Shown piece after piece: positions 18,295-36,014 of a DNA stretch of 64,000 nt. The notes beneath the pieces are model-generated. The model had not been told where the DNA came from, searched no databases, and saw nothing but the letters and a program-made list of their open reading frames with translations. Each line of letters opens with the position of its first letter. Position 1 is the first letter of the stretch. A program made the position numbers and the translations under genes. The DNA is from Candidatus Babeliales bacterium (GTDB lineage Bacteria; Babelota; Babeliae; Babelales; JANWKD01): NCBI GenBank assembly GCA_963762115.1, contig CAVXJH010000006.1, positions 1 to 64,000 of the forward strand, in the 5' to 3' direction.

Positions 18295-20126
18295 TCTTTT
18301 CGTTTAAATTTCTTTTCAATGTCATAAAGAGGTAAGAGCCAACTCGTTGGCCTTCCATGCGGACAACTAAATCTATTTTCAGTAACTTGCAAATCGTTCA
18401 AAAGCTTTTGCACGTGCTCATCACTCAAAACATCCCCTGCTTTCACCGCTGCCTTACAAGCCATTTGCGCTTGTAGAACATGATTAAGCTTGGGAAGCAA
18501 TGCATTGGATGCCGTGCCAATCTCTTCTTGAATAAGCACTATTATTTCTTGCAAAAAAGCACGCCATGCAATATTTTTCAAATGAACTGGTGTTGCTTGC
18601 ACCAACAATTGACGATCACCAAAAGGCTCAAGGACAATACCATTTTGCTCAAAAAGACTTAGATAAGAAACAAGCAATGCATATTCTTCATTGGTAAAGG
18701 TAACCACTTCAGGAAAAAGAAGTTGAATTGAAGCGCATTCCTCAAATCTTTTTGAAAAACGTTCATATAAAATGCGTTCATGAGCTGCATGTTGATCAAC
18801 CATCAAAATACCATCAGCTTGTTTAACCAAGATATACGTCTTATTAAAGATACCAAGAACATTAAATGCAATCTGTTCCACTGCATGTGCTTGAACTTCT
18901 TTCTTAGAACTCTCAATCGATAGTAGTTCTTGCTGGTACTTTTTTTCTTGAACGGAATGAGTAACCATACTTTCAGGTCCAACTGGTTGCATACTCTGAT
19001 AAGCAATTTGTGCTGATGTCGGCAATGAAAATGTTTTTTCAAAAAAAGAATTCTCTTTTGGCGGCTTATTACTAACGAAAGAATTGTTAACAGGAATTGC
19101 CACTGGCACAACTGCTTGTTGCAGTTGCTGAGAAATATTTTTTTCCAAAGCTGTCTTTACCAAATTCTGTAACGCTTTTTCAATACGCAAAGGTTGTATA
19201 AAGGAAACTTCTTCTTTGCGTGGATGAATATTAATATCAACTTCATGCGGATCAACCTCAATATGAATACACGCAGCTGGATAACGTCCTTGTTGCAATG
19301 TTGGCATATATCCTTTGATCAATGCTTGAGAAAGTTGATAGTTTTTTACCCAACGAGAATTCACAAAAAAGAAAATTTGATGGCGATTATAACGCGTTAA
19401 CTGTTGATTGGAAATCAATCCCGTAATCTTAAAATTCGGCAACTCATCATGCTCAACAAGAAAAAGGTTTTTTGCAAAATGAGAATCCCATACCTGCGCA
19501 ACACGATTTGTTAAGTCAATGGCCTTTGGGCAATTCAAAAGAAGAGTATTTTCAGAATGAAGTTGAAAATGAACCCCTGGATACATAAGTGAAAAAGCTT
19601 GTATAAGCATTATAATAGCACGAGATTCTGTTTCATCTTTTTTAAGAAATTTTCGACGCACCGGAACATTAAAAAAAAGATTTATGACGCTAATATCAGT
19701 GCCAATAGCACACGTAGCTGATTCAACATGAAAAGGCTTTTCTGGTTCACCGACAACTTTTGTTCCTTGTAATGTCTGCTCTTGCTTTGTATAGACGACT
19801 ATTGAACTGACCGCAGCAATACTTGCTAATGCTTCTCCACGAAAACCAAAGGTTTTTAGCTGAGATAAATCATCAAAACAAGTAATTTTACTCGTTGCAT
19901 GATGCTCAAAACATTTCAGCGCATCAGCCTCAGACATACCAAATCCATTATCAACAACACGAATTAATGATCGACCTGCATCATGAATAGTTATAGTAAT
20001 CACTGTTGCTCCTGCATCGAGTGCATTTTCAACAAGTTCTTTAACAACATTTGCAGGACGGTCAACAACTTGACCAGCAGCAATTTTTCGTGCTTCTGAA
20101 GGAGGCAAGGTAATAATTTTTTGCAT
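18291..20126 (-). CDS. mutL: DNA mismatch repair endonuclease MutL
   Basis: KELVENALDAGA, GFRGEAL, DQHAAHER, ACKAAVK, CPHGRP. Confidence 0.97.
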   Translation of the reverse strand: MQKIITLPPSEARKIAAGQVVDRPANVVKELVENALDAGATVITITIHDAGRSLIRVVDNGFGMSEADALKCFEHHATSKITCFDDLSQLKTFGFRGEALASIAAVSSIVVYTKQEQTLQGTKVVGEPEKPFHVESATCAIGTDISVINLFFNVPVRRKFLKKDETESRAIIMLIQAFSLMYPGVHFQLHSENTLLLNCPKAIDLTNRVAQVWDSHFAKNLFLVEHDELPNFKITGLISNQQLTRYNRHQIFFFVNSRWVKNYQLSQALIKGYMPTLQQGRYPAACIHIEVDPHEVDINIHPRKEEVSFIQPLRIEKALQNLVKTALEKNISQQLQQAVVPVAIPVNNSFVSNKPPKENSFFEKTFSLPTSAQIAYQSMQPVGPESMVTHSVQEKKYQQELLSIESSKKEVQAHAVEQIAFNVLGIFNKTYILVKQADGILMVDQHAAHERILYERFSKRFEECASIQLLFPEVVTFTNEEYALLVSYLSLFEQNGIVLEPFGDRQLLVQATPVHLKNIAWRAFLQEIIVLIQEEIGTASNALLPKLNHVLQAQMACKAAVKAGDVLSDEHVQKLLNDLQVTENRFSCPHGRPTSWLLPLYDIEKKFKRKD

Positions 20127-20181
20127 ATTTTTATAAAGGTAAAAAATAATAGTAGAAAGATTAGTTTATGTTGTTAGTGTA

Positions 20182-20361
20182 TCAGTTTTGTGTATTGTTG
20201 CTAGAATCATCTTCAACATCATACACCTCTTGCTCCACCTGCAATCTAAAAAAAGAGTGTTTTTTTCGCTTTTTTGACTTATCTTTAGGTGGTCCTGAAC
20301 TTACAAAAGACAGAGTAAATAACGTCAAAACACCGAATATAAGAAATGATATTTTTTTCAT
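20182..20361 (-). CDS. 59-aa secreted peptide with basic NLS-like cluster (below the ORF-track cutoff)
   Basis: Hand translation: MKKISFLIFGVLTLFTLSFVSSGPPKDKSKKRKKHSFFRLQVEQEVYDVEDDSSNNTQN*. AAAAGGA RBS upstream. Confidence 0.6.
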   Translation of the reverse strand: MKKISFLIFGVLTLFTLSFVSSGPPKDKSKKRKKHSFFRLQVEQEVYDVEDDSSNNTQN

Positions 20362-20435
20362 GAGTATGTCCTTTTTTGTATAATTTTAAAATAACAAAAA
20401 AGACAGCTTAATTTCAATAGTTTGCTTTTTGTTTC

Positions 20436-21488
20436 TTATTGCAAATTAAATGTCCAGGCAATATTAGTATTTAAAAAGTAACTTGTTTTATTCTGTATAC
20501 CCGTTAATTTTTGATAAACAGGAACGCCGATACCAATTTGAAAAACAAAATGCTTTGATGAAATCCACAATGAAGGCGCACCAAAAAGAATATGGCTACC
20601 GCTATTAGGATCTGGTTGATTCATAACAATATTTTTTTGCGTACGAATACCAAATAATTCAAAAATCCATGCAAAAATCCATTTTTGAGGCAATGTACCA
20701 ATAATACCTTCAAAACCCAATTGATAAAGAAGGGTATTACCAAATTTACGACCGTTCTTTTTGGTGGTTATTAAGCCGCCAACAGAACCATAAACATACC
20801 AAAACAATGCTTGATAAGTCGTCGTTGTCCCCAAAAAAAATGCTGGCGAACCAAATCCAGTTCTCGGATTTTTTTTTGTTGATCCTGTTGGTAAAACAAT
20901 ATTACCAACAATCGTTGCTTGAAATTCACCCTTCAAAGTTCTTTTATCATAATACGCATATTCAACTTGTAAAATTGTATCTTCCAAGCCTGAAGAGTGG
21001 GCTTCCGTTGTATCATCATTATCATCATCATCATTATCAGAATCCATCATTGCATCGATATCAAAATTATTCATTCTTATTACTTCATGGCCATTTCTAA
21101 GAGGGACAAGGGAGCTTATTGAAGTTACTGTTCCCTTTGCCGTCCGCCTTAAAGCAACAGGCATAGCCAAAAAAATTGAAAGCGTATCAGTAATGCCATA
21201 AAGGGCATACAAATTAAGTTCACTAGCGCTAAAATTATGACCGCGAAGTTTATTAGGTGAACAATATATTTGTAAATCTCTTTTATTAATAATATTTTGA
21301 CCAAAACCAAAAAGAGGTCCTGGTTCTTGTGTTGTTGGCAACAAAAAATTACCAACAGCAAGCGGTTCTACACCTTTTTGACCTTGCTCTCCGGGCTCAT
21401 CAATGCCAACAGCTCTGGAAACAAGCTGCATCGGCGACAACAAAAAAATTGAAATACAGACTATAAAGACCACAATACGATGATACAC
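20436..21488 (-). CDS. putative outer-membrane beta-barrel transporter-family protein with an Asp-rich insert
   Basis: Signal peptide, GLEDTILQVEY, VLPTGS...GFGS, amphipathic strands, aromatic C-terminus (IAWTF). Confidence 0.55.
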   Translation of the reverse strand: MYHRIVVFIVCISIFLLSPMQLVSRAVGIDEPGEQGQKGVEPLAVGNFLLPTTQEPGPLFGFGQNIINKRDLQIYCSPNKLRGHNFSASELNLYALYGITDTLSIFLAMPVALRRTAKGTVTSISSLVPLRNGHEVIRMNNFDIDAMMDSDNDDDDNDDTTEAHSSGLEDTILQVEYAYYDKRTLKGEFQATIVGNIVLPTGSTKKNPRTGFGSPAFFLGTTTTYQALFWYVYGSVGGLITTKKNGRKFGNTLLYQLGFEGIIGTLPQKWIFAWIFELFGIRTQKNIVMNQPDPNSGSHILFGAPSLWISSKHFVFQIGIGVPVYQKLTGIQNKTSYFLNTNIAWTFNLQ

Positions 21489-21573
21489 TTTTTATCTCTC
21501 TTTTTTTTATGAAATAGTTTTTCAATCAGTATAACAATCATTGCTGTTTTTTTAAGCCATAAAAAAAATTAAT

Positions 21574-22107
21574 TTAATGCATCATAAAATTGATGTATTC
21601 TTTCTTATCAGAATCGACAAAAGGTTGTAATTTAGTGACCTCTAAAGCAGCAACAGCAGGAATTTGCTGCATTTTTTGCAGAAATTGTGTTATTACACTT
21701 AACGAGCGTCCTTGACCAGAAATCTCAATAAATTTCTCATGAGCATATTCAAAATATGACAAACAAATATCATCAGGAATAACGGAAAGCAATCTTTTAA
21801 AATCTTGATTAAATAAAGACTTTTTTACTACCAATGCCGCTAAAAGTTCTTTATTTTTTTGCAATGAAACAAGTTGTTTCTTGAGCACATCGACGTTACC
21901 ATGTTCTTGCACAGGTACTGGAATAAGTGCCCCCTGCTCTTGTTTTAAGAGCAATAATTGCCAACACTGATAGCCCGTATAACTGCCCATTGCAAGCATC
22001 ATACAAAGTAACAAAAAGCATGAACGATTATACCATGTTATACAGGCAACATATTCCCGAGGAGCAATAGGATTAATTAAATTGGCGGTATCATTAGGAC
22101 ATTTCAT
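21574..22107 (-). CDS. PilN-like type IV pilus/T2SS alignment protein
   Basis: INPI motif, single TM, coiled coil, VIPDDICL..., EISGQGRS...FLQKM. Confidence 0.65.
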   Translation of the reverse strand: MKCPNDTANLINPIAPREYVACITWYNRSCFLLLCMMLAMGSYTGYQCWQLLLLKQEQGALIPVPVQEHGNVDVLKKQLVSLQKNKELLAALVVKKSLFNQDFKRLLSVIPDDICLSYFEYAHEKFIEISGQGRSLSVITQFLQKMQQIPAVAALEVTKLQPFVDSDKKEYINFMMH

Positions 22108-22729
22108 TGATTACCTGCTTTCCTAATAAAAAAAGACCTTGATGAAAGGCCTTGCTTTGATTTTCAAGAGTATTGATTTTTCGTTGCTTCAATTCTTCTA
22201 AACTCATATATGCAGTAGAGTCCGCCGATTGTGTCACTTCTAATAAGGCACGCAAAGTAGAACTTATTAAACAACAGTTAAATGGTGTTGATAATGCTAA
22301 CAATTGATATTGCATAATAATTTCTCGTGCAATACTAAAAAAATATACTTGTTGTTGGTCCTGTAATTGTCGTGGCAAAAAATAAAAATTCCATACTTTT
22401 GATGGCGCAATTTTTTTTGCCACATCAATTGGTGCGTCACCATCTTTTTCAAAAGAAATAAGTTGTTCTTGCAACGCTCCCCCTTGCAAGCCAAGCGCAA
22501 CAAAAGCGTTTTGCACTTTGTTTTCTTGCAAAAAAGTTCTAAATAATGTTTTTAAAGCAGTGTGATTAAAAATAACACCTTCATAAATTTCAGATTTCAT
22601 AAGCGGAATTTTTTGAAAAGTTCCTTGCATGGCTGAACTTTTCAAATCAAAAGCAGTAAAGCTCAAACAATCAGGTTCGATAACTGCTGTTACCAATGTT
22701 TTTTTAGGAGCGCATGAAAGGTCCCACAC
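22094..22729 (-). CDS. divergent PilM-like protein
   Basis: Directly upstream of and overlapping the PilN-like gene; IYEGVIFNHTALKTLF resembles the PilM N-terminus. Confidence 0.45.
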   Translation of the reverse strand: MWDLSCAPKKTLVTAVIEPDCLSFTAFDLKSSAMQGTFQKIPLMKSEIYEGVIFNHTALKTLFRTFLQENKVQNAFVALGLQGGALQEQLISFEKDGDAPIDVAKKIAPSKVWNFYFLPRQLQDQQQVYFFSIAREIIMQYQLLALSTPFNCCLISSTLRALLEVTQSADSTAYMSLEELKQRKINTLENQSKAFHQGLFLLGKQVINEMS

Positions 22730-22811
22730 AAAAATTTCCTTTTGCCATTGGGTAAAATCTATACTGTTTCTATAAAAACACTATAGATTTTTTACATCAC
22801 CTTATGCAAGA

Positions 22812-23291
22812 TTATTTTTTCAAGAAAGTGTGATAATAAGCAACCGCACTTCCTATTCCAAGACAAACTCCGCCAAAAAAACCTAGACACAACAAGAACT
22901 TCTCATTGTGTTCTAAAAATGTTTCTTTTCTTACCCCATCATTATTTTTCTGAGTCCAAACTTCTTTTTTTGATTTCTTCCAAGCTTTTCTTTCAACTTG
23001 CCAAGCCGCTTTTTGAGCCCTTCCCCAAGCATCAAATACTGGCGCCAAATCAGCATCATTAAAAAAAAGAGTTCCATTCTTACATCGATTACGAGCAGTA
23101 AGCTGCACACTATACTGATTCGTGGGCAAATGTGCACTAAAAATAGTAACGCTAACTTCTTGCTTAACCTCTCTATTTTCTTGTTGCACCTGAGATTCAG
23201 GAAGTTTCCCTTCTTCCTTACTTTCCATAGCAAAAGATAAAGATGCACCACATAAAAAGCTCAAAAACATAAAAAAATAACCTATTTTCAT
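22812..23291 (-). CDS. secreted protein with C-terminal TM tail (family member 1)
   Basis: SFA|MES; tail FLEHNEKFLLCLGFFGGVCLGIGSAVAYYHTFLKK. Confidence 0.75.
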   Translation of the reverse strand: MKIGYFFMFLSFLCGASLSFAMESKEEGKLPESQVQQENREVKQEVSVTIFSAHLPTNQYSVQLTARNRCKNGTLFFNDADLAPVFDAWGRAQKAAWQVERKAWKKSKKEVWTQKNNDGVRKETFLEHNEKFLLCLGFFGGVCLGIGSAVAYYHTFLKK

Positions 23292-23363
23292 AGATATACC
23301 TAAAATAAAGATGATTAATTAATTAATATGAAACACGAACTCGATGTTCAAAATAAGCAAAAT

Positions 23364-23498
23364 AATCAGAATTGTCATTGCGAGCGTAGCGTGGCAACCC
23401 AGATAATAAAATTAGTTCATTAAAAAAGAAATTTACCAAAATTCTGGGTTGCCACACCTTGCCTATCGAAGGCAAGGTTCGCAATGACAATTCTGATT
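23364..23498. repeat. TGTC-tagged REP-like palindromic doublet
   Basis: AATCAGAATTGTCATTGCGAG-..-GTGGCAACCCAG ... CTGGGTTGCCAC-[hairpin]-TCGCAATGACAATTCTGATT. Confidence 0.88.
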
Positions 23499-23560
23499 TT
23501 AATATTTTTTACCTTAGGCTAAGTTTATGTTCTTTATTCGTCAAGTTCGCGTTATGAAGA

Positions 23561-24124
23561 TTATTTTAAATGATAAAGCCACAAACTACTAACAAAAGTA
23601 ACACCTGCGGCAAAAGATAAAAAACCTATTTGAACAACATTTTTCTCAGCCCATGTTCTTGTATCATAAAGTTGTGCCGTAGAACCAACATTTAAATACC
23701 CAATTTGCTTTTGTAATGACTCAATTTTTTCATCTTTTTTTTGCATCTCTTCAGGTGAAAAAAAATTTTCTCGTGTTTTTATACATTGAGTAAGTGAATC
23801 CAAATCATCATGACTAAGCACCAAAACATGCGATACTTCATGTTTATTATTTTTAACGCTTTTTCTCTTTTTGTTTAACGGCACTTCTTTAAAATGTTGA
23901 TCATTTAAGGGAATTATATGCACACTTTCTTCGGATTCTGTATCATCAAATCGAAAAATAAGCGATGTTATGCTAATCTTCGGAACCTCATGAGAGACAG
24001 CGGGAAATGGCTTACGAGGGGAATTAACTGGTTGTTTTCTTACATTCATTGCATTAGATGAAAATATCATACACTGCATTACTATAAAAAAAATTAATAT
24101 TTGTTTCATTACTATGCCCCGCAC
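23561..24124 (-). CDS. secreted protein with C-terminal TM tail (family member 2)
   Basis: SNA|MNV; tail WAEKNVVQIGFLSFAAGVTFVSSLWLYHLK. Confidence 0.75.
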   Translation of the reverse strand: MRGIVMKQILIFFIVMQCMIFSSNAMNVRKQPVNSPRKPFPAVSHEVPKISITSLIFRFDDTESEESVHIIPLNDQHFKEVPLNKKRKSVKNNKHEVSHVLVLSHDDLDSLTQCIKTRENFFSPEEMQKKDEKIESLQKQIGYLNVGSTAQLYDTRTWAEKNVVQIGFLSFAAGVTFVSSLWLYHLK

Positions 24125-24200
24125 CCTACTCTTTTTTTCTTACTACTCATGCACCTAATTCACTGATTATTTTACAAAAATTAACAGAAAGAAAGCAATA

Positions 24201-25094
24201 TTACTCGCAATAATAACCAACAGCAACACGATCATGCCCAGCAAGATCTTTGAGTATTGTTATCTGACTATAACCATGATCAACTAATAAATCATATACG
24301 GCAGGCCCTTGCAAATGGCCAATTTCAACATACAGATTACCTAACCCATATTCACGTAATTCATCATTATGGCGTAACCATGTGGGAGCTTCTTTAATAA
24401 TCGATGTAATAAGCGCCAAACCATTTTCCTGCGCAACTAATGCTTTTTCATCTTCCCACTCTTTAACCATCGGATCAAGATCATTATATTCTTTCTGACT
24501 AATATAAGGTGGATTCGTAACAATAAGATCAAATGATATATCTTTTGGTAATTGAGAAAAAAGATCTGATTGTATAAAGGTAACCGTCGAAATATCGTTA
24601 AAATCAGCATTTCTTTGCGCTAACTTTAATGCTGTCACCTCACTATCAACAGCATATATCGTTGCCTGCGGCAAAGCCTTTGCCAAACTCAACGCAATCA
24701 CCCCTGAGCCCGTACACATATCAAGAATCGTCAATTTTTTATTAGGCAGCTTTTGTAACTGAGCTACTAAATTCATAACCCATTCTTCTGTTTCCGAGCG
24801 CGGAATAAGCGTTGGTGGTTCAACAATACTATCAAGATCGCCAAAAGGCACTGAACCGAGAATATATTGTAATGGTTTATGATGTTGCACATGTTCAGTT
24901 ATAAAAATTAATAATTGCTTTTCTTGCTCATCAGTAAGTATATCTTGTTGTTCACTTACCAATGCTAGCAATGATTTTCCGGTCACTTTTTGCAATAATA
25001 ACTGGGCAATCTGCTGTTGTTCTTCTTTGGTTGCATAAAGCGAAGCGAGTTGTTGTGAAAGAGAATGAATATAAAATAAAAAAGATTTGTTCAT
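24201..25094 (-). CDS. prmC: release factor glutamine methyltransferase
   Basis: PLQYILG, LIPRSETEE, LDMCTGSG, TNPPYI, EIG..QG, KDLAG.DR. Confidence 0.95.
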   Translation of the reverse strand: MNKSFLFYIHSLSQQLASLYATKEEQQQIAQLLLQKVTGKSLLALVSEQQDILTDEQEKQLLIFITEHVQHHKPLQYILGSVPFGDLDSIVEPPTLIPRSETEEWVMNLVAQLQKLPNKKLTILDMCTGSGVIALSLAKALPQATIYAVDSEVTALKLAQRNADFNDISTVTFIQSDLFSQLPKDISFDLIVTNPPYISQKEYNDLDPMVKEWEDEKALVAQENGLALITSIIKEAPTWLRHNDELREYGLGNLYVEIGHLQGPAVYDLLVDHGYSQITILKDLAGHDRVAVGYYCE

Positions 25095-25109
25095 AGTAGT
25101 AACTCTAGC

Positions 25110-25147
25110 AAAAAAGCTCGCTGTTTTGAACAACGAGCTTTTTTTTT
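25110..25147. terminator. bidirectional intrinsic terminator
   Basis: AAAAAAGCTCG...CGAGCTTTTTTTTT. Confidence 0.7.
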
Positions 25148-25168
25148 ATACGTAAAATAATTAATCTT

Positions 25169-25653
25169 TTATTTAAAAAACATACTTGCAGCAGCAGTTA
25201 AGGTAACACTCGCAGCACCTACAAGAAGTGCAAACTTTCCTGGATTTCTTTGATATGTTTTCTTTTTATTTTCATGATCTTCAATTGCTGCTTGAGCTAC
25301 TAACCTATTCTCATCCGTATCAAAAAAGCTTAAAATAGCTTTTGAATAAAGTTTCTGACCTGTTACAAAATCATCTTTTGTAAATCCAAGATTCATTTCA
25401 CCCTCTTTATCAGATGTTACATAATGTTTCTTAGGATCAACATCAATGGTAATGACTCGTTCAAATTTTTCTATATCGCCATCTTTAACTTTTTTTCCAA
25501 GCAAAACTTTTCCTATATTAAGTTTAACCGCTTGTCTATCTTCATCACCTTTTTTTCTTTTTCACCCATATCACCTGCATATGATGATTGCACAAAAGCA
25601 CCTACCATACACGCTGCCATGAAAGAAAAAAATAACTTATGAGTACTATTCAT
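25169..25653 (-). pseudogene. secreted protein with C-terminal TM tail (family member 3), split by a -1 frameshift
   Basis: The signal-peptide ORF (MNSTHKLFF...SSYA|GDM) joins ORF 25169-25504 through GAA AAA AAG at 25549-25557. Tail YQRNPGKFALLVGAASVTLTAAASMFFK. Confidence 0.7.
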
Positions 25654-25740
25654 AAAAAATCCCCTTGCTTGAAAAAATAACACACCTCTTTCAAAAAAAG
25701 TGTATGCTATTGCAGCAAAAGAATTCAATATTTTAAATTG

Positions 25741-26460
25741 TTAAACGATCTTTTCTTTTTCTTTACCATTTTCAGAATCAGAATTAAAAGAATCTCGAGG
25801 GGTTCCTTTTCCTTTATAGGACTTATCAAATGGTGATAAAGATTGATTTTTTGTATTTTTTCTCTTCTTATAAATTAAAGACTTCTCTTTTTTTTTATCT
25901 TTTTTATCTTTAACTTCGAACGATCGTGGGGAACGATCACCCCATGAAAATCGTTTTTTTCGAGGAGAAATATCGGCATTTTCTAAAATTATTTCTATTT
26001 TATCTTCTATGCCTGACAAAGATTGTTTTAAATCTTTTCGTTTTCTTATTTTTGCAAGATCAATAACTCTTTTTTGACGGGCAAAATCCTTCAATTCAAT
26101 TACATCTTTCTTCAATACTAAAAGATCATTATAAATGGTATCTACTGAAACATTATGAGGATTTAAACCTTGCAACTGAACAATTGCTACATTTGCAGCC
26201 TGCAATTGTTGATTAAGAGCGCTAACTTCACCCTGCGTTGCCGCTTTTGCACCAAAAAATTTTGAAGCAAGAGCATCATAGGATTTATTCAAAGCAAATA
26301 CACCAACAATCAACGCTGGGCCCTTAACCCACCATGAATATTCATCAAATTGCTTTGATGTTTCTTGCATAAAATGAGTTACATATTCCATACTAAAATT
26401 AGTGTGCACTGAAATAAAAAAAATAAACGTAAGAAGTAGTCTCAAGATAGGTGTTTTCAT
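25741..26460 (-). CDS. hypothetical secreted protein with TM, coiled coil and Lys/Arg-rich C-terminus
   Basis: NFS|MEY; ISPRKKR and YKKRK clusters. Confidence 0.7.
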   Translation of the reverse strand: MKTPILRLLLTFIFFISVHTNFSMEYVTHFMQETSKQFDEYSWWVKGPALIVGVFALNKSYDALASKFFGAKAATQGEVSALNQQLQAANVAIVQLQGLNPHNVSVDTIYNDLLVLKKDVIELKDFARQKRVIDLAKIRKRKDLKQSLSGIEDKIEIILENADISPRKKRFSWGDRSPRSFEVKDKKDKKKEKSLIYKKRKNTKNQSLSPFDKSYKGKGTPRDSFNSDSENGKEKEKIV

Positions 26461-26546
26461 AAAAATCCTCATTAAAAAAATAACTTTTTTTGTTATCCAT
26501 GTTTTAACAAGGCTACTCAAAAAAGGCAAATTTTATCAATGGATTC

Positions 26547-27446
26547 TTATGATTCAAGCAACTGTTTAACATAATTTTGAGCATCAAAAACATCAAACTG
26601 CTCAACCCCTTCTCCATGAGAAATATAAGCAATGGGAATATGCAATTCTTGTGCGATAGCAAAAACAATGCCACCTTTTGCCGTGCCATCCATTTTGGTC
26701 AAAATAATGCCATCTAAAGAAGTGCTTTCATTAAATAGTTTTGCTTGTTCAAATGAATTTTGACCAAGCATAGAATCAATAGTAAGCAACGTGGTAACCT
26801 TTTTTTCAGGTAGTTGCTGCGAAAGAATGCGTCTAATTTTTTCTAACTCTTTCATCAAATTAGTTTTTGTCTGCAAACGACCTGCCGTATCAATAATAAG
26901 CACATCATACCCATTATTTTTAAACTGCTGACAAGCAGTAAAAATGACCGAAGCAGGATCTTGATTTTCTTTGCCGATAATAATATCAGCATGAATGCGG
27001 GTTGCCCATTCTTTCAATTGCGCTGTCGCAGCCGCACGAAAGGTATCACCGGCAACCAGTAAAACCTTTTTACCTTGTTTCACAAACTGATTAGCCAACT
27101 TTCCAACAAATGTTGTTTTCCCACTACCATTGATACCAACAAGCAGGAAAACCTGATTTTCAGAAGTGAATTTCTGAGCTTCTAAATGCTCAATCAGCAA
27201 TTTTTCTAATGCTTTTTTTAAATCTTGCCCATGCTCAATGCTGCCCTCTTGCACACTTTTACGCAATCGCGTTAATACAGCACGAGTTGTTGTGACGCCA
27301 GCATCAGCGCTTAAAAGCAGTTGCTCAAGTTCTTTCAACGTTTCTTCATCAATTGTTGTTCGAGAAAACAGCGTGGAAACTTTTGCCGTGAATGATGAAT
27401 AAATGGTTGAGAGTTTATTTTTTATGAAATTAAACATTTTTTCCAT
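26547..27446 (-). CDS. ftsY: signal recognition particle receptor FtsY
   Basis: GINGSGKTT, DTFRAAA, DTAGRLQ, TKMDGTAKGG. Confidence 0.97.
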   Translation of the reverse strand: MEKMFNFIKNKLSTIYSSFTAKVSTLFSRTTIDEETLKELEQLLLSADAGVTTTRAVLTRLRKSVQEGSIEHGQDLKKALEKLLIEHLEAQKFTSENQVFLLVGINGSGKTTFVGKLANQFVKQGKKVLLVAGDTFRAAATAQLKEWATRIHADIIIGKENQDPASVIFTACQQFKNNGYDVLIIDTAGRLQTKTNLMKELEKIRRILSQQLPEKKVTTLLTIDSMLGQNSFEQAKLFNESTSLDGIILTKMDGTAKGGIVFAIAQELHIPIAYISHGEGVEQFDVFDAQNYVKQLLES

Positions 27447-27566
27447 TCAGATATAAGTATGGATTTTTTATTAATTATATACTTTTTTGTAAGAATTAAT
27501 ATTGGGTTTTGTTTGTAGTAATTATTATCTATTTCTTATATTGTTTTGCTTTTTTTAATATCATTC

Positions 27567-27806
27567 GGCCCTATGCGGGCAGCACAAATGTATTGCGTGC
27601 CCAATACATTTGATACAAAGGCCCCAACGTTTCGTTGGATCTAATCTCTCGCTCGAATGCGGACCACTCCATTATTCATGCTTTCAGCATCAAAATTCCG
27701 GGTACCCGTCTCGCTACCGGAATAATATTTATAAATTTCTCTCAATACAAATAACATCCAAAAAAGAAATGTCATCCTGAGGCGATAGCCGTGAGGATCC
27801 AGTCTA
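27567..27806. repeat. ~240-bp structured noncoding element, copy A
   Basis: Near-identical reverse complement at 31942-32184; contains several hairpins and a terminal TGTCATCCTGAG...GAGGATCCAG REP-like unit. Confidence 0.92.
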
Positions 27807-27830
27807 AAAATTTTTCCAAAATAATAAAAA

Positions 27831-28376
27831 TTAATGTTTATTGTTCATCAACTCACGCAAAAACCAACCCGCAGCACCACAAGAAATGCCCGTCGACAGC
27901 ATACCTAACCCGGCACAATAATAAGGATGCCGCTCAAATACATTCTTTTGTTTTTTAATCCTTGTTTCAGTATTAGATACATGTATTAATGGTAAAATTC
28001 TTTTTTCCATTGGTCGAATATCCCATATAACCGTTGAATTATTGTTTCTTTGCCCATTATTTTTAAGTAATAAAGCGGGAAAACAACGATCAACATCTTT
28101 TTGAGTAAGGGGAAAATTACTGACTATTTTAATTGATACTCGACCTCTATTAAGATTCTCAAAAAATAAACTATCATTATCCATTCCATCGGGATAATGA
28201 TTTTTTTCCGTTTGTGCAAAAAGATATTCCGAAATAAAACTATAAAATCTGGTGGGCTTATCAACAAGAAGAGTATGCTTCATCACATTCTTCTTTCTTT
28301 TCTTCTTTATGCCTAATAATCCTGTTGATGAAAAAAATAATAAAAAAACAAAAATACTCATTGCCCAGGTTCTCAT
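27831..28376 (-). CDS. secreted protein with C-terminal TM tail (family member 4)
   Basis: Signal peptide followed by KKKRKK; tail VFERHPYYCAGLGMLSTGISCGAAGWFLRELMNNKH. Confidence 0.72.
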   Translation of the reverse strand: MRTWAMSIFVFLLFFSSTGLLGIKKKRKKNVMKHTLLVDKPTRFYSFISEYLFAQTEKNHYPDGMDNDSLFFENLNRGRVSIKIVSNFPLTQKDVDRCFPALLLKNNGQRNNNSTVIWDIRPMEKRILPLIHVSNTETRIKKQKNVFERHPYYCAGLGMLSTGISCGAAGWFLRELMNNKH

Positions 28377-28467
28377 AACTCTTTTTCTCACTCTATTTTT
28401 ATAATAATTGATAAAATACTGAAAAATTAGCCTTATAAACAACCAAAAGAATAGGTTGTTATTAAAA

Positions 28468-28511
28468 AAAAACAGGGCTTGCTTGAAAATAGCCAAGCAG
28501 GCCCTGTTTTT
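28468..28511. terminator. intrinsic terminator
   Basis: AAAAACAGGGCTTGCTTG...CAAGCAGGCCCTGTTTTT. Confidence 0.7.
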
Positions 28512-28538
28512 GAATAATTTTTAACGATCACTCTTTAT

Positions 28539-29009
28539 TTATTTTTTACTTCCCCACCAATAACCTACCGCTCCTCCCACAGCAACAGATAAACCACACA
28601 CCCCTAACATGACGTTCATTGGATTCCTTTGAAAATAAGATTCTTTTCTTTTAATATCATCATGAACGGTACGAACAAAATTAGTATCTGAAGGTGATGC
28701 TATATGCTTTTTATGACTTTTGTCAGATTTTACCTGCAAGTGAGAAAGTGATGGAGTAAGAGAAATAACATGCAAAACATTCTCAAAAAAGTGAGGAAGC
28801 GCAATCGCTATATAGCGTTTTTTTTCTTCGTCAAACACAACCTTAAACTCTTGACTGGTACCACAAAAAAATGATGGCCCATAAGTTATACTTCCCAATC
28901 TTAGCTCAACATTAGGACCTTCTTGCTTAACTTCTGTCTCCATGCCGAATGTAAAAAAAGAGCTATTCAACAACATCCCTAACGCGAAGAAAAAAAATAT
29001 TTTTTTCAT
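28539..29009 (-). CDS. secreted protein with C-terminal TM tail (family member 5)
   Basis: TFG|MET; tail YFQRNPMNVMLGVCGLSVAVGGAVGYWWGSKK. Confidence 0.75.
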   Translation of the reverse strand: MKKIFFFFALGMLLNSSFFTFGMETEVKQEGPNVELRLGSITYGPSFFCGTSQEFKVVFDEEKKRYIAIALPHFFENVLHVISLTPSLSHLQVKSDKSHKKHIASPSDTNFVRTVHDDIKRKESYFQRNPMNVMLGVCGLSVAVGGAVGYWWGSKK

Positions 29010-29048
29010 AAAAAACCTTACTGATTTAAAAATAATACATACACTTAA

Positions 29049-29645
29049 TTAATTAAAAAGATGCTGTGCCCGCTGCAAAAAAAGCTTTAATCTTCGATAA
29101 TCATTCCCCGTTAATAATGAAAATGCCTCTAAAAACAATTCAATATGTTTTGGATGTAAACAATCCATATCACGCATCGTTTTCAAAAGGGCCAACAAAA
29201 GCTCATCTAAATTATGCACCTGGCCAGCAAGACCAAATAAAACATGCAAATAATGCTCACGAGCAAAAAATTCTTTACTCAATGTTGGACAAGCTGTTGC
29301 AACAAAAGTATGAATTTTGGGAGGCTCTGGCGCGCACTGATAAAAAATTTTCCCTTTTTCTTTATAGCCAATAACTAAACAAGAAAAAGTAGTCTTTAAA
29401 AATTCAAAAATTTGTGGTTGCTCTCGCAAAAGCTCTTCTTCTGTTTTTTGATAGGGAAATGGATAACGAACAGGATCCATAGAGCCAGTTTGAATCTGAT
29501 GCACAATACCAAAAAGAGTGTACTTTTTGCTTTCGATCGTCACCAATGAACCAAAAGTTGGAAAAGTATGCCATTCCCAGCTCTGCGCTAACCAACTAAC
29601 GAGTGAACTTTCTATAACTTCGGCAAAAGGTTTTTTTGAATTCAT
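29049..29645 (-). CDS. HAS-barrel-like domain protein
   Basis: AEVIESS, PTFGSLV, EEELLREQPQIFEFLKT, PEPPKIH, DYRRL resemble the stand-alone HAS-barrel family. Confidence 0.7.
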   Translation of the reverse strand: MNSKKPFAEVIESSLVSWLAQSWEWHTFPTFGSLVTIESKKYTLFGIVHQIQTGSMDPVRYPFPYQKTEEELLREQPQIFEFLKTTFSCLVIGYKEKGKIFYQCAPEPPKIHTFVATACPTLSKEFFAREHYLHVLFGLAGQVHNLDELLLALLKTMRDMDCLHPKHIELFLEAFSLLTGNDYRRLKLFLQRAQHLFN

Positions 29646-29744
29646 TTTAAAAAAAACAGTATGTTATATTTTTTTATACACAAGAACAATATACAAAAAC
29701 TATAACAGTTTTTTAAAAAAACTCATAAATAAGTAAATAACTAC

Positions 29745-30389
29745 TTATTTATTACGCCAATTATCCCACAAAGTCTTTAAACTCCAACCAGCACCCAAAC
29801 TAGCTACTGAAGTTAATCCACAACAAACAAAGGCTTGAGAACGAAAAAATGAAGGCTTGGGTTTAGCTATTTCTGCATCTATTTTTTCATTACTCTGTTT
29901 TTTTACTTCCGCCACTTCACCTACTAGTTCATAATTCAACTGTATTAGATTGCTTATTACTAAATTCTTTCGCTTTTTTATTGCCTTCACTGCAGGTTTT
30001 TGTATGCCACGAACATCTAAAGCAATACAACCTGCACCTGGAATCGAACTATCTGAATATACTATTTGAGGTATATAATTATCTATATTGTCTAAATCAA
30101 GTGGTACAACAGAAAGAACTTCTACGTCTGGCCGCTCTTCTTCTTCACCCGTAGTAAATTTATTCTTTAATCCCTGAACAAACTCTTCATCTTTTTTATA
30201 TTCATGACGAGCTATCGATACAAAAGCTAGCCGACGCATACTCACAGCTCCTTCAGAGGTTATCTCTTCTCTTGCTGTATAAGGCCTAACTGCACTATTA
30301 GTTTTACGAGACATTCGTACTGCATTAAGATCTAAACTTGCCATAAGCATTAACATGCCGAAACTTAAAAAAAATATTTTTTTCATCAT
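29745..30389 (-). CDS. secreted protein with C-terminal TM tail (family member 6)
   Basis: MKKIFF signal peptide; tail SFFRSQAFVCCGLTSVASLGAGWSLKTLWDNWRNK. Confidence 0.72.
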   Translation of the reverse strand: MMKKIFFLSFGMLMLMASLDLNAVRMSRKTNSAVRPYTAREEITSEGAVSMRRLAFVSIARHEYKKDEEFVQGLKNKFTTGEEEERPDVEVLSVVPLDLDNIDNYIPQIVYSDSSIPGAGCIALDVRGIQKPAVKAIKKRKNLVISNLIQLNYELVGEVAEVKKQSNEKIDAEIAKPKPSFFRSQAFVCCGLTSVASLGAGWSLKTLWDNWRNK

Positions 30390-30515
30390 AAAAAACCTTT
30401 ATATTTAAAATTAATATATTCATTTCATTAATTAAACAATACTGAAAAGAGCCACAGAAATCAAACAAAAATTAAATTTATATTCTGTTTTATTTTTTAT
30501 TTGAAATAAGATTCA

Positions 30516-31208
30516 TCAGAAAATTTCTTGTTGCTCATTAAAATCATCTTCTTGCTCACCGATTAGCCAAGCACCTTGTAAAAAGTTAATACGATGAATA
30601 ACCGAATGCCCTAAATCTTGCACCAAAGCACGATGCTTGGGTGTAGCATACCCTTTATGAGCAGCAAGCAAATAGCCGGGAATAGCGTTATCAAAATGAA
30701 TCATAAGACGATCGCGTGTTACTTTTGCAACAATGGAAGCAGCGGCAATTGAACTAGATTTTTTTTCACCAAAAGGGAAATAAAGAACATCAATATTGGA
30801 AAAAGGCGAGTTATCAAGCCTTAAAGGCATAGCATCAATCACCGTTTTTGATGGTAAAGGGCAACCTTGAGACATAAGCTGCATGAAAGCTCGTTTCATT
30901 GCCTTAAGCGTTGCTTGATAAATGTTATGCGTATCAATTGCACGATGATGCAAAGATGCTGTTGCATGCCAGCTATTTTTGAGAATCCAAGAATATGCCT
31001 TATCACGTTCCTCTTTGGTCATTATTTTTGAATCCTTAAGCAAACGATGGTTTTTACCCGGATGCAATATGACAGCAGCAACCACAACCGGTCCTGCCAA
31101 ACACCCACGACCAACTTCATCAATACCACAAATGAGCTTATTTTCTGCCCATGCAGTATGCTCAAAATGATTTTTATTAAAACGTTCTTTGTAGCGAATG
31201 GTTGTCAT
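30516..31208 (-). CDS. rnhB: ribonuclease HII (canonical bacterial type)
   Basis: GIDEVGRGCLAGPV, KDSK, IAAASIVAKVTRD, HKGYAT..H. Confidence 0.95.
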   Translation of the reverse strand: MTTIRYKERFNKNHFEHTAWAENKLICGIDEVGRGCLAGPVVVAAVILHPGKNHRLLKDSKIMTKEERDKAYSWILKNSWHATASLHHRAIDTHNIYQATLKAMKRAFMQLMSQGCPLPSKTVIDAMPLRLDNSPFSNIDVLYFPFGEKKSSSIAAASIVAKVTRDRLMIHFDNAIPGYLLAAHKGYATPKHRALVQDLGHSVIHRINFLQGAWLIGEQEDDFNEQQEIF

Positions 31209-31557
31209 GAAATATACAGTTCAAAAAAATAACTGATTTAAACAATAGCGAACAGCATAAAACAGTATACGATTATTTAACACAAAGTAAAAATTAATTC
31301 TGAATCTATTTCCATTAGTGCAACATATTTTACCAAGTGTTAAGTGCACTTAACAAATAGTTATACTAAACGCTAAATGACTTAACATTTGGTATTGAAT
31401 TCGAGAGGGAAAGGGTCTATTTTTAAGGAAAGTTGTCTTGCCAAACCTGCAAACAGGTTTTTTATACCCAAAGGATAGGCCTGATGACAAAAAAAATATT
31501 TTTATGTATAATAGTAATGTTATAAATAAAAATGGCATTTACGGAGGTTTTACTATT

Positions 31558-31914
31558 ATGAATTATCTTAAAAAAACACTTATTCTTTTTTTACTTCTGG
31601 GAAGCTCTTTGCCTTTTAATAGCATGAAAGCAAAATCCATTGAAGAAACAAAAAAAAGCCCTTTTACAAGACAATGCATACATAACAATCTAATACTGCC
31701 CAAAATAAAACGAATAGCACCCGAAATAACTTCAAGATTCGAAAGACAATATTACCTCCAAAAAATCACACCTTCCTCTACTAGAATTTTGCAGATTTTT
31801 TTCGAACAAAAACAATTAAAAAATCTTGATTTTAAATATATTTCGTCATATTTCAAAAATTTTAAATCACCAACAAAAGTCGCCTATTCGCAACAAACAC
31901 AACATAAATCATAA
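31558..31914 (+). CDS. hypothetical secreted basic protein
   Basis: GGAGG RBS; MNYLKKTLILFLLLGSS signal peptide. Confidence 0.6.
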   Translation: MNYLKKTLILFLLLGSSLPFNSMKAKSIEETKKSPFTRQCIHNNLILPKIKRIAPEITSRFERQYYLQKITPSSTRILQIFFEQKQLKNLDFKYISSYFKNFKSPTKVAYSQQTQHKS

Positions 31915-31941
31915 ATTGGCCCGCTATCGGACTTGTATTTA

Positions 31942-32184
31942 TAGACTGGATCCTCAACGGCTATCGCCTCAGGATGGCATTTCTTTTTTGGATGTTATTT
32001 GTGTTGAGAGAAATTTATAAATATTATTCCGGTAGCGAGACGGGTACCCGGAATTTTGATGCTGAAGGCATCAATAATGGAGTGGTCCGCATTCGAGCGA
32101 GAGGTTAGATCCAACGGAACGTTGGGGCCCTTGTATCAAATGTATTGGGCAAACAATACATTTGTGTCTGGCCGACATGAGGCC
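31942..32184. repeat. ~240-bp structured noncoding element, copy B (inverted relative to copy A)
   Basis: Reverse complement aligns with 27567-27806 with scattered substitutions. Confidence 0.92.
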
Positions 32185-32234
32185 TTAGTAATAAAAATCA
32201 TAAAAAAGTGAAACAATTTTCTTGTTTAAACGAG

Positions 32235-33245
32235 CTATTTTATAAAATCCTTTTCTTTGATCGCCAAAGGATCTTCAAATGCCCTTGGATCACCCTTTGC
32301 TTTCAGCAGCTTTATTCGTTCCTTAAGTCGCTTAATACGAACAGTTGGATGAGGATGAGAATGCGCTCGAGAATCCTTGTCATAAAATTTTGTATGTAAA
32401 AGATAGTGATCTTTTAAACGATTTTTAAATGCTTTTAAAAGATGAATGTTATCCGCTATGGCAGAATCTGCCCTTGATTCTCTATATTGTGAATACCGAA
32501 ATGCTCCTTCTCGAGCAACAGACTCAGGCCCTACGATCGTTGTAAAAAAAATAAAAATTGGCCAAGAAACTTTTTTGCATTTCAATAATAAAGCGAATGG
32601 GCTCAACATAACCCCAACTGCTAATCCATAGTATAATTCTTTTTCATATATAAAATTTCCGTTATCATACCATAAATGATAACGATCACCATTAAGAATA
32701 TGTCCTCCCTCATGATGTACTACCGCTGCAGCCTGTTTTAAATACTCATCAGTTGATTTTTTAATTGACTGCTCCTGTTCGTCACCATAGAAAAATGTCT
32801 TTATTTTTGAAAAAAACGACGGAACATATTTTTGACGCACAAGACATTCTTTAAGGCGATCATGTTCTGCCACTGATATAATTTTTTTTCCTTCTTGAGC
32901 TGAACCACCCCAACGCCGTGCCTTTATAATGTGTAAAGATTCCTGATCTTTAAGGCCACATGCAGCTAATTGTTGCCGAATAAATTGTTCAACAAGAGGG
33001 TCAACTTCTATAACAGAATCTAAAACTGGTTTTTGCTCAAAAAGATCTTCCTTATTAGATAAAAATCCCGCTAAGGCAATGCCTGTACCCACGCCTGCCA
33101 CGATTCGCCCCCAGGATTGAATTCGGGCCATCTTTGACCCTACAACAATCTGCTTTAAGTGATTAGTGCTATGCTGCATCCCTAGAATGGAGCCTGATAG
33201 GTGAAATATACTATAAATCGTTATTATAAAATAATGTTTAAACAT
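32235..33245 (-). CDS. secreted M48-family metallopeptidase (paralog of 34776-35816)
   Basis: HHEGGH, ESRAD, HSHP; shares VDP.VEQF.R.QL and AFEDPLA.KE with the paralog. Confidence 0.8.
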   Translation of the reverse strand: MFKHYFIITIYSIFHLSGSILGMQHSTNHLKQIVVGSKMARIQSWGRIVAGVGTGIALAGFLSNKEDLFEQKPVLDSVIEVDPLVEQFIRQQLAACGLKDQESLHIIKARRWGGSAQEGKKIISVAEHDRLKECLVRQKYVPSFFSKIKTFFYGDEQEQSIKKSTDEYLKQAAAVVHHEGGHILNGDRYHLWYDNGNFIYEKELYYGLAVGVMLSPFALLLKCKKVSWPIFIFFTTIVGPESVAREGAFRYSQYRESRADSAIADNIHLLKAFKNRLKDHYLLHTKFYDKDSRAHSHPHPTVRIKRLKERIKLLKAKGDPRAFEDPLAIKEKDFIK

Positions 33246-33399
33246 AATGCATCTTGTATGAGTTTAAATAAAAATCGCTAACACTCTATTGTTTTGTGAA
33301 AAAATAGTATTGTCAAATTGCAACTTCATCAAGATTCCAGACTCATAGCGCGCTACCAAAATATTTTATAACTATTTTTATTTTTGTTGATCAAAAAAC

Positions 33400-33464
33400 T
33401 TGCAAATATATAGTCAAATATCCTATATTAAGTCCAAAGGTAAGACAAATCCTTACCTTTGGAC
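33400..33464 (+). promoter_or_regulatory. abiE promoter with inverted-repeat operator
   Basis: TTGCAA-N18-TATATT followed by a perfect 13-bp IR GTCCAAAGGTAAG-N7-CTTACCTTTGGAC. Confidence 0.65.
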
Positions 33465-33485
33465 CATATAATGAATAGAAGGCTC

Positions 33486-34094
33486 ATGGAAAAAAAGATT
33501 GTAAAAGGTTTTATAAAAGATTTATTCAAATCATCAAAGACTGTTTTTTCGTTTAAAGATCTTTGTCTTTTATGGGGAAATGCTGATCCTAAAACCATAA
33601 AATCACGCATAAATTACTATGTAAAACATGGGGATCTCTATCATATTCGTCGTGGTTATTATGCCAAGGATAAAAATTATGATCGCCTTGAATTCGCTAC
33701 CAAAATTTTCACTCCTGCCTATATAAGCTTTGAAACAGTTCTTGCACAAGCAGGTATTATTTTTCAATATTACCATGAAATTTTTGTGGCTTCATATAAG
33801 TCAAAAAGTATCATCTGCGATAACCAAATCTATACTTTTAAATCTATTAAATCAGTGATTCTCACCAATTCTGCCGGCATTGAAATTAAAGAACATTATT
33901 CTATTGCCTCCCCGGAAAGAGCTTTTTTAGACATTATTTATTTGAACACTAGTTATCATTTCGATAACCTTTCTCCCTTGAATTGGCACAAAGTATATGA
34001 AATTTTGCCTATTTATGAGAATAATAAACGAATGAAAAAAATGGTCGAAATGTATCATAATTTCTATAAATCTGAATTAGGAGAAAAAGTATGA
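33486..34094 (+). CDS. type IV toxin-antitoxin antitoxin, AbiEi family
   Basis: wHTH (HIRRGYY), PAYISFETVL, ASPERAFLD; 4-bp overlap with the downstream toxin gene. Confidence 0.88.
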   Translation: MEKKIVKGFIKDLFKSSKTVFSFKDLCLLWGNADPKTIKSRINYYVKHGDLYHIRRGYYAKDKNYDRLEFATKIFTPAYISFETVLAQAGIIFQYYHEIFVASYKSKSIICDNQIYTFKSIKSVILTNSAGIEIKEHYSIASPERAFLDIIYLNTSYHFDNLSPLNWHKVYEILPIYENNKRMKKMVEMYHNFYKSELGEKV

Positions 34095-34783
34095 CTATTG
34101 ATAATGCTCAACATAAAAATATCCTTATCAGAATACTCAAAGATATTTTCACCAATCCTAGCTTGGGTCCAACATTAGGCTTCAAAGGTGGAACAGCTGC
34201 CATGTTATTTTATGGTTTAAATCGCTTTTCTGTTGATTTAGATTTTGATCTTTTGGACATAACCAAAGAAGATCATATCATTAATGAACTTAAAAAAATC
34301 TTAGAAAAATATGGCACAATAAAAGAAGCCAACAAAAAAAGATATACCATTTTTTTCTTACTTTCTTATGATCAAAAAGTAAAAAATGGCCAGAATATTA
34401 AAGTTGAAATCAATAAAAGAAATTTTGGATCAAAATATGACATCAAAGAATATCTTGGGATATCGATGAAAATAATGACACGCGAAGATATGGCCGCCCA
34501 TAAACTTGTTGCCATGCATGAAAGAATTGGAAAAACAAATCGCGATATTTTTGATGTTTATTACTTTTTAAGCAATAATTGGCCAATCAATAAACTCATC
34601 GTTGAACAAAGAACTAGCATGAAATATCAAGATTTTTTGCAAATTTGTATTTATGAACTAGAGGAAATGAGCAATCAAAATATTCTTTCAGGTATTGGTG
34701 AACTTTTAGATGAAAAGCAAAAGGCATGGGCAAAAACAAACCTTAAAAAAGAAACTATTTTTTTGCTTAAACTAGCTATTTAA
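34091..34783 (+). CDS. type IV toxin-antitoxin nucleotidyltransferase toxin, AbiEii family
   Basis: FKGGTA, RFSVDLDF, KVEIN, AHKL...RDIFD. Confidence 0.92.
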   Translation: MTIDNAQHKNILIRILKDIFTNPSLGPTLGFKGGTAAMLFYGLNRFSVDLDFDLLDITKEDHIINELKKILEKYGTIKEANKKRYTIFFLLSYDQKVKNGQNIKVEINKRNFGSKYDIKEYLGISMKIMTREDMAAHKLVAMHERIGKTNRDIFDVYYFLSNNWPINKLIVEQRTSMKYQDFLQICIYELEEMSNQNILSGIGELLDEKQKAWAKTNLKKETIFLLKLAI

Positions 34784-35816: not shown

Positions 35817-36014
35817 AATTCCCCTAATTGTTTCTATTTTGCTTAATTTTATCATAAGATTAGTATTTCATAAATCAATTAAATTGTCAAAATGAAAATA
35901 AACAGAGGTGGCAAGGCCAATTTTTTGTACTCTTTAGCCTGTTTTTAATGCGACAGGGCCCTAAACGAGCGGATTAGATGAAATTTATTGAATTTACCGG
36001 CGAAATGTTTCCAT

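Follow-up and report, generated by a model that had tools for sequence, protein, structure and literature searches.

What do six small secreted proteins, encoded close together among housekeeping genes, gain from ending in a similar hydrophobic helix? The question is raised by positions 22812 to 30389 of a 64,000-nucleotide stretch of Candidatus Babeliales bacterium (assembly GCA_963762115.1, contig CAVXJH010000006.1, positions 1 to 64,000), which is referred to here, at its full length, as the window. An original prediction had offered two answers for the shared tails, either an undescribed CTERM-type sorting signal or a family of effectors directed to host membranes. We favor, with about an even chance of being right, a reading in which the six genes (T1–T6) are a lineage-restricted and partly paralogous array, and in which the end helix is a portable, uncleaved anchor similar to ElaB/YqjD tails, carried by exported effectors that would insert into host membranes. 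The window is from Babeliales (TM6/Dependentiae), a lineage of intracellular protist parasites whose isolates in print live within protists. The source genome has 1.53 Mb and 34% GC, and the closest relatives of its FtsY are those of Babeliales/Dependentiae (~50–67% identity). The six genes are the following:

T1, 22812..23291, minus strand: 159 amino acids (aa); signal peptide, weak match to a shared small core, C-terminal helix and basic end; motif marginal; orthologue P0008.
T2, 23561..24109, minus strand: 182 aa; signal peptide, shared core of four strands plus a helix, C-terminal helix; motif marginal; orthologue P0021.
T3, 25169..25653, minus strand: signal peptide, a core of its own, strong tail module; two frames near 25550 in this assembly.
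T4, 27831..28376, minus strand: 181 aa; signal-peptide-like start, core in common with T6, strong tail module.
T5, 28539..29009, minus strand: 156 aa; signal peptide, core unlinked to the shared profile, strongest tail module.
T6, 29745..30389, minus strand: 214 aa; signal peptide, core in common with T4, C-terminal helix; motif marginal.

All six orphans lie on the minus strand with their tails where the original prediction had placed them, except that T3 is not a single open reading frame (ORF) here, i.e. its signal-peptide piece ends at 25513 and the tail follows in a different frame. Because the protein database contains an intact 161-aa form (P0004), and because the frame continues across this A-run in the contig of a relative, this split is likely an assembly slip. 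None of T1–T6 matches a Pfam or NCBIfam model above cut-off, and no lipobox was found in the five intact proteins. Using a simple gene caller and hydrophobicity rules, on which our counts of signal peptides and C-terminal helices are based, we find a signal peptide together with a single C-terminal helix in 23 of 1435 called genes, 5 of them inside 10 consecutive genes. This clustering is far beyond chance, as it was reached in only 2 of 20,000 permutations.

The tails follow a common layout, which we call the module: a basic stretch, an aromatic pair, an [RK][HNY]P-like turn, ~19 hydrophobic residues rich in small side chains, and an aromatic/basic end. Its helix has a small-residue fraction of 0.53, compared with 0.26 in control helices. 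We scored the six tails against 106 other C-terminal hydrophobic tails of the source genome (control tails). With a model made from 38 matches in other genomes (the held-out set described below), which had themselves been retrieved by a model that includes five of the six window tails, 13, 10, 0, 0, 0, and 14 control tails score at or above T1–T6, respectively. A model made of the six tails of locus L002, an ftsY locus elsewhere in Babelota, gives 7, 12, 1, 0, 0, and 59, and leave-one-out scoring among the six window tails gives 4, 23, 6, 5, 0, and 2. Judged by these scores T3–T5, which exceed all 106 control tails on the first of these models, share a real module, and T1, T2, and T6 carry weaker versions of it; the predicted common end motif thus holds for three of the six and is marginal in the others. 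Tails no better than random C-terminal helices, or full-length paralogues of a known inner-membrane family, had been named as outcomes that would speak against the prediction. The result lies about halfway, with three of the six tails only within the top 10–13% of C-terminal helices, and with proteins that are partly paralogues and belong to no known family.

The module is not restricted to the window. A 12-tail profile matches in 52 of the 214 genomes of the order at E ≤ 0.02, while a second, 38-sequence profile, at E ≤ 0.001, has matches in 84 of 214 genomes of Babelota (58 of 188 when the training genomes are set aside) and in 6 of 151 genomes of a control phylum, which are larger. Seven loci were dropped when the second model was built (2 from the source genome, 1 signal-peptide hit, 1 YfgM-like, 1 without a start, and 2 polytopic). 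For further characterization we used a held-out set, the best 40 of 125 matches outside training, with rows from the source genome and two paralogues of training sequences skipped. It comprises 39 matches after removal of L150, a training sequence, and 38 for charge, Pfam, and modeling after removal of L169, which has a mis-called start. A signal peptide is found in 32 of the 39, compared with 707 of 1435 genes of the source genome under the same rule. Within these 39 proteins, the module is C-terminal in 12, just behind the signal peptide in 11, and internal in 16. Neither the 12- nor the 38-sequence alignment has an invariant residue (the best columns reach 22 of 38), and a cysteine precedes the helix in 1 of 38. 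For 29 of 38 held-out matches, the stretch ahead of the helix has the higher net charge, and for 4 the stretch behind it.

Known domains were found in 10 of 31 carriers in one set and in 6 of 38 in the held-out set. Those lying between the signal peptide and the module are GNAT (4 proteins), DnaJ, HDAC, WD40, and ankyrin. In four Babelota genomes (L117, L163, L168, and L171), a signal peptide, a GNAT acetyltransferase, and a C-terminal module are combined in one protein. Another carrier (L156) has an NCA2 domain; this family was found in 16 of the 41 Babelota genomes scanned and in none of 14 controls, and the NCA2 protein of the source genome (L186, G000:C3:162989-164479) has a signal-peptide-like start. 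NCA2 proteins have an outer-membrane location. The family is described as mitochondrial (PMC7050145, PMC10069894), and from its sequence the NCA2-family protein is a candidate mitochondria-directed effector. A literature search, which did not cover subscription papers or the supplementary expanded-family tables for Babela, returned no description of the module in Dependentiae.

The cores ahead of the tails had been described as divergent, and this agrees with T3 and T5, whose cores do not match the shared profile. T4 and T6, on the other hand, have cores similar to one another and to one L002 protein (0 of 200 shuffles), and with a core profile built without the window genes or their orthologues, T2 is the proteome's top match (E = 0.001) and T1 a weak one (1 of 300 shuffles). 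T3–T6 cores have no match to this T1/T2 core profile. A single core for all six was considered and is unsupported for T3, for T5, and for T4/T6 against the same profile. The 5′ regions of T5 and T6 are alike (rank 1 of 695; 0.71, next 0.69). By these comparisons the array is in part a product of duplication, in which at least three types of core carry the same type of tail. The tail is also better conserved than the core in 5 of 5 orthologue pairs tested; for example, T2 and P0021 share 54% identity in the tail and 36% in the core. A core-only model of the T1/T2 type is confident (four strands plus a helix; predicted local distance difference test, pLDDT, 88; predicted template modeling score, pTM, 0.63). 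This core is likely a protein-binding or oligomerizing module, because some relatives have two or three copies of it. For the core-only model, Foldseek finds nothing at E ≤ 0.001 in either PDB or BFVD, and none of 48,161 chains matches with Z ≥ 2; a sequence search of PDB with the core reaches E = 0.27 at best, and ESM Atlas gave no usable match for T2 and T6. That the fold is new does not follow from these negative results. We take a PC4/Whirly/Pur-like fold, a family not among the structure-search matches listed, as a tentative lead. A full-length model of family member P0015 has a pTM of 0.37, with matches confined to its long helix.

The array as a whole is narrowly distributed. A comparison of 48 ftsY loci of Babelota shows rnhB-HAS-ftsY-prmC-pilM-pilN as a widely conserved backbone with variable orphans in its gaps, and homologues of the window tail genes occur at L002 only, where six tail-bearing genes sit in the same intervals. 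Unrelated signal-plus-tail proteins occupy the same gap at L006 and L008. When 41 genomes are scanned with a full-length profile, the source genome and the same-genus G001 alone yield the array, and 2 more give weak matches. A search of 1.84 billion representatives retrieves 22 proteins at E ≤ 0.001, mostly family members, along with one large repeat protein and one DUF883-like protein matched through its tail. An orphan, tail-only remnant of a family member (L081, G000:C3:515316-515432; full-length relative P0022) adjoins a transposase-like gene, of IS110 type by eye.

How could such proteins reach a host membrane? Babeliales are intracellular parasites and possess an export route, the combination expected of a lineage with host effectors; the source genome encodes two secretins, GspC, and a PilM/GspL-like gene, and also, by motif, two GspE-like genes and pilin-like genes. 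Two copies of gspD are reported as a core trait of the lineage (PMC4776705), and for Babela, which grows in vacuoles, type II is reported as the only secretion system detected (PMC4378268). In the pathway that we infer, from export to host insertion, the protein would cross the inner membrane by Sec and have its signal removed by signal peptidase I. The helix may be too weakly hydrophobic for reliable stop-transfer, and a type II system or outer-membrane vesicles would carry the protein outward. The uncleaved helix would then insert into the membrane of the vacuole or the surface of an organelle and leave the folded domain exposed to the host cytosol, much as ElaB/YqjD tails do in yeast mitochondria. 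A plausible single most likely target is the mitochondrial outer membrane. This host-membrane reading, the better supported of the two answers originally offered, draws its inference from the identity of the host, the type II system, the enrichment of signal peptides, cargo that depends on the cytosol, and the likeness to ElaB/YqjD.

Several observations weigh against it. T1, T2, and T6 fit the module only marginally, and kinship among genomes means that the enrichment figures overstate independence. The charge asymmetry of the held-out matches is partly built into the model that picked them, and in the six window proteins the charge flanking the helix is symmetric (median +1.5 on each side), with a basic end of 1–2 net charges. 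A housekeeping YfgM-like anchor ranks 4th in the proteome of the source genome on the model, i.e. the junction pattern is generic. On a simple summed hydrophobicity scale, the six helices have a median of 2.4 and eight hand-picked inner-membrane anchors a median of −1.6 (−4.4 to +3.3), but a noisy, automatically picked 24-protein control set, containing soluble proteins and uninformative, does not differ from the six (P = 0.35), and the weak hydrophobicity of the helices is tentative. Most carriers (21 of 31; 32 of 38) have no known domain. The handover of a hydrophobic helix to type II secretion and the crossing of the vacuole membrane by the cargo are also left unexplained by this reading.

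Its main competitor, which we consider somewhat unlikely, is that these are ordinary type I inner-membrane proteins, with the signal cleaved, the core periplasmic, the helix stopping transfer, and the terminal Lys/Arg cytoplasmic, their likeness resulting from duplication together with general rules of helix capping. By default, a signal peptide with a C-terminal helix and basic end leads to this outcome, it agrees with the partial paralogy of the cores, the similar T5/T6 5′ regions, and the good score of the YfgM-like anchor, and the T1 helix is about as hydrophobic as that anchor. By contrast, the GNAT and DnaJ domains of other carriers would then be periplasmic, and because to our knowledge acetyl-CoA and Hsp70/ATP are absent from the periplasm, such a placement suits them poorly. 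N-proximal copies would leave few residues outside after a cleavable signal, and the module is enriched in an intracellular lineage. The basic residues also lie mostly on the would-be periplasmic side; a higher charge before the helix fits an N side that faces the cytosol and is the wrong way round for an N-out inner-membrane protein, although this point is partly circular. Another outcome, in our estimate a distinctly unlikely one, would be export followed by retention, where the uncleaved helix sits in the parasite's own outer membrane or vesicles and the core is displayed toward the lumen of the vacuole or the cytosol of the host. For this route the genome has type II machinery, surface display would likewise expose the cargo to host cofactors, and both vesicle release and replication in the host cytoplasm are reported for Chromulinavorax (PMC6561590). 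Single helical anchors are, however, rare in outer membranes, and the lack of a lipobox in the intact proteins also stands against it.

The sorting-signal branch of the original prediction fares worse. In this explanation an undescribed CTERM-type signal would be cut by a dedicated intramembrane protease before type II export, and all six window proteins do have a motif-helix-basic layout at the C-terminus of a signal-peptide protein, one tail is found on different cores and outlasts them in conservation, and the genome has one CPBP-domain protein. By published description, a tripartite sorting signal is a domain at the C-terminus that has a signature motif and is paired with a cognate protease (Haft, bioRxiv 10.1101/2023.06.07.544157), and the module does not fit this definition. 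The CTERM reading is unlikely, indeed improbable in our estimate, because the module occurs at any position (12 of 39 C-terminal), has no invariant residue, and the known proteases are either not found or not co-occurring. Specifically, none of 12 tails matches any NCBIfam model, CTERM models included; rhomboid was found in 0 of 61 Babelota genomes and in 14 of 14 control genomes; no sortase or exosortase was found in the source genome; and Pfam/NCBIfam scans reveal no protease gene within the cluster. Phylogenetic profiling for a cognate peptidase, suggested with the prediction, also came out negative, as CPBP proteases are present in 143 of 214 Babelota genomes without co-occurring with the module (52/32/91/39; odds ratio 0.70, P = 0.24). 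A processing protease of a class other than those searched may still be present. The last alternative, which we regard as highly improbable, is incidental likeness, i.e. fast-evolving secreted orphans gather at a hot spot of insertion, and it is by chance that several of them have a hydrophobic helix at the end. The unrelated orphans in the same intervals of other Babeliales and the weak T2 and T6 tails would agree with this, but it is largely refuted by the clustering of the genes, by the rank of T3–T5 over every control tail, and by the six tail-bearing genes in the same intervals of L002.

The host-membrane reading has a bolder form, which we hold only tentatively and think doubtful as a whole: that Babelota export a large set of effectors through Sec and type II secretion, and that one self-inserting anchor coats the host mitochondrial outer membrane. 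In this form the mature ends would start with Met-Glu/Gln/Asp/Asn like native cytosolic proteins, and the genes of the cluster would encode anchored adaptors, of an unclassified small fold, that have expanded in this one genus. Across the whole source genome, [AGSC]-Met is found at residues 16–30 in 198 of 480 signal-peptide-like soluble proteins (e.g. those of the genes starting at 23291, 24109, and 29009 of the stretch); the corresponding counts are 23 of 455 for non-signal proteins and 25 of 480 for a control window. The following residue is E, Q, D, or N in 144 of these 198. Such predicted mature starts resemble those of eukaryotic proteins acetylated by NatB, given the specificity of this enzyme, and suggest mimicry of host cytosolic N-termini; a literature search for Met at +1 or NatB in protist parasites found nothing. 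In Chromulinavorax, 44% of proteins are reported to have signal peptides, and the host mitochondrion wraps the bacterium (PMC6561590).

Around the six tail genes, the window contains the following:

pilM-like and pilN-like genes, 21574..22729, minus strand: downstream backbone, kept in synteny; PilN E = 0.0026, below cut-off, and the pilM label given from position and by eye.
prmC, 24201..25094, minus strand: backbone gene outside the family; TIGR03534 above cut-off.
Secreted orphan of 239 aa, 25741..26460, minus strand: N-proximal hydrophobic stretch and basic C-terminal half, without a C-terminal helix; syntenic homologue in L002.
ftsY, 26547..27446, minus strand: backbone gene; TIGR00064 above cut-off.
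HAS-barrel-like backbone gene, 29049..29645, minus strand: PF09378 at E = 0.0017, below cut-off; kept beside rnhB across Babeliales (synteny).
rnhB, 30516..31208, minus strand: backbone gene flanking the cluster.

The tail genes had been predicted to be interleaved with prmC, ftsY, and rnhB; the first two are indeed inside the cluster, while rnhB only flanks it, and the HAS-barrel-like gene and the 239-aa orphan also lie inside. An Rfam scan over 20000-34000 gave 0 matches, and promoter and terminator scans stayed at chance level. Palindromic intergenic repeats resembling repetitive extragenic palindromes or miniature inverted-repeat transposable elements (REP/MITE) are found at 23360-23500 and 27550-27800 of the window, with ~25-28 BLAST hits in the genome. 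Further along, two secreted M48-peptidase-like proteins, each with an N-proximal Gly/Ala-rich helix, are encoded at 32235-33245 and 34776-35855, and between them lies a pair of genes (33486-34783) that by eye resembles an AbiE-type toxin-antitoxin pair. A typA/bipA-like GTPase gene, also recognized by eye, extends over two ORFs at 38274-40071, a possible further assembly frameshift. Elsewhere in the genome, five signal-peptide proteins have small-residue-rich C-terminal helices but not the junction motif (G000:C6:68329, C6:523236, C5:61037, C5:134360, and C6:71835). The single CPBP-domain protein (L133, G000:C7:138571-141957) is a polytopic protein of ~1130 aa with the CPBP domain at its center, and similar-sized matches exist in many Babelota genomes.

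Babelota are widespread protist parasites in which secreted proteins, mostly unexplained, make up near half of the proteome. A recurring anchor module provides a sequence handle for the membrane-bound subset of these proteins and predicts their topology, and it makes testable how host membranes are remodeled, and mitochondria recruited, by a bacterium whose only export routes are Sec and type II secretion. If the coating of mitochondria were true, it would offer a molecular path to the wrapping by the mitochondrion observed in Chromulinavorax; if the proteins are merely inner-membrane anchors, what remains is a modest family description.

Among known systems, the YfgM-type N-terminal anchor (TPR_21) has the same amphipathic-turn-helix junction and scores on our model, but unlike the module it is an uncleaved, N-in, housekeeping anchor with no signal peptide ahead of it. 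The tripartite signals (LPXTG, PEP-CTERM, GlyGly-CTERM, and MYXO/JDVT/Synerg/CGP-CTERM) share the motif-helix-basic layout on signal-peptide proteins with unrelated cores, and GlyGly-CTERM is reported to operate with type II secretion as well. They differ from the Babelota module, which has no invariant motif residue, stands at any position, lacks an Arg cluster (including in the six window proteins), and has no cognate protease found or co-distributed with it. A further host-membrane comparison is provided by the Inc proteins of Chlamydia, which use type III secretion. Transmembrane effectors of Legionella, Coxiella, and Brucella, delivered by type IV secretion, typically have moderately hydrophobic helices that enter host membranes (PMC12981334); entry into host membranes is likewise proposed here for the module. 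Such type III and type IV effectors cross both bacterial membranes by injection, whereas Babelota carriers have Sec signal peptides and one portable anchor module, in a lineage reported, unlike these pathogens, with type II secretion only.

The closest likeness is to DUF883/ElaB/YqjD (PF19029, DUF883_C), which has a similar aromatic-x-basic-[HN]P turn, glycine/alanine-rich helix, and basic end. The module profile also retrieves DUF883_C-like tails (P0025, E = 0.034; L140, E = 0.013 to PF19029), while PF19029 itself has no match in the source genome and, among 38 module copies, reaches a single one, below cut-off (E = 0.011). ElaB and YqjD are small cytoplasmic proteins without a signal peptide; the Babelota module, by contrast, is found with signal-peptide-like N-termini, on varied cargo, and at any position in the protein. 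The ElaB/YqjD tails, with their glycine-rich helix and basic end, are reported to insert into the yeast mitochondrial outer membrane (PMC5525287), and another Escherichia coli tail is reported to target peroxisomes (bioRxiv 10.1101/437855). By its sequence features, then, the module would work like a tail anchor, yet belongs to neither DUF883 nor any CTERM family.

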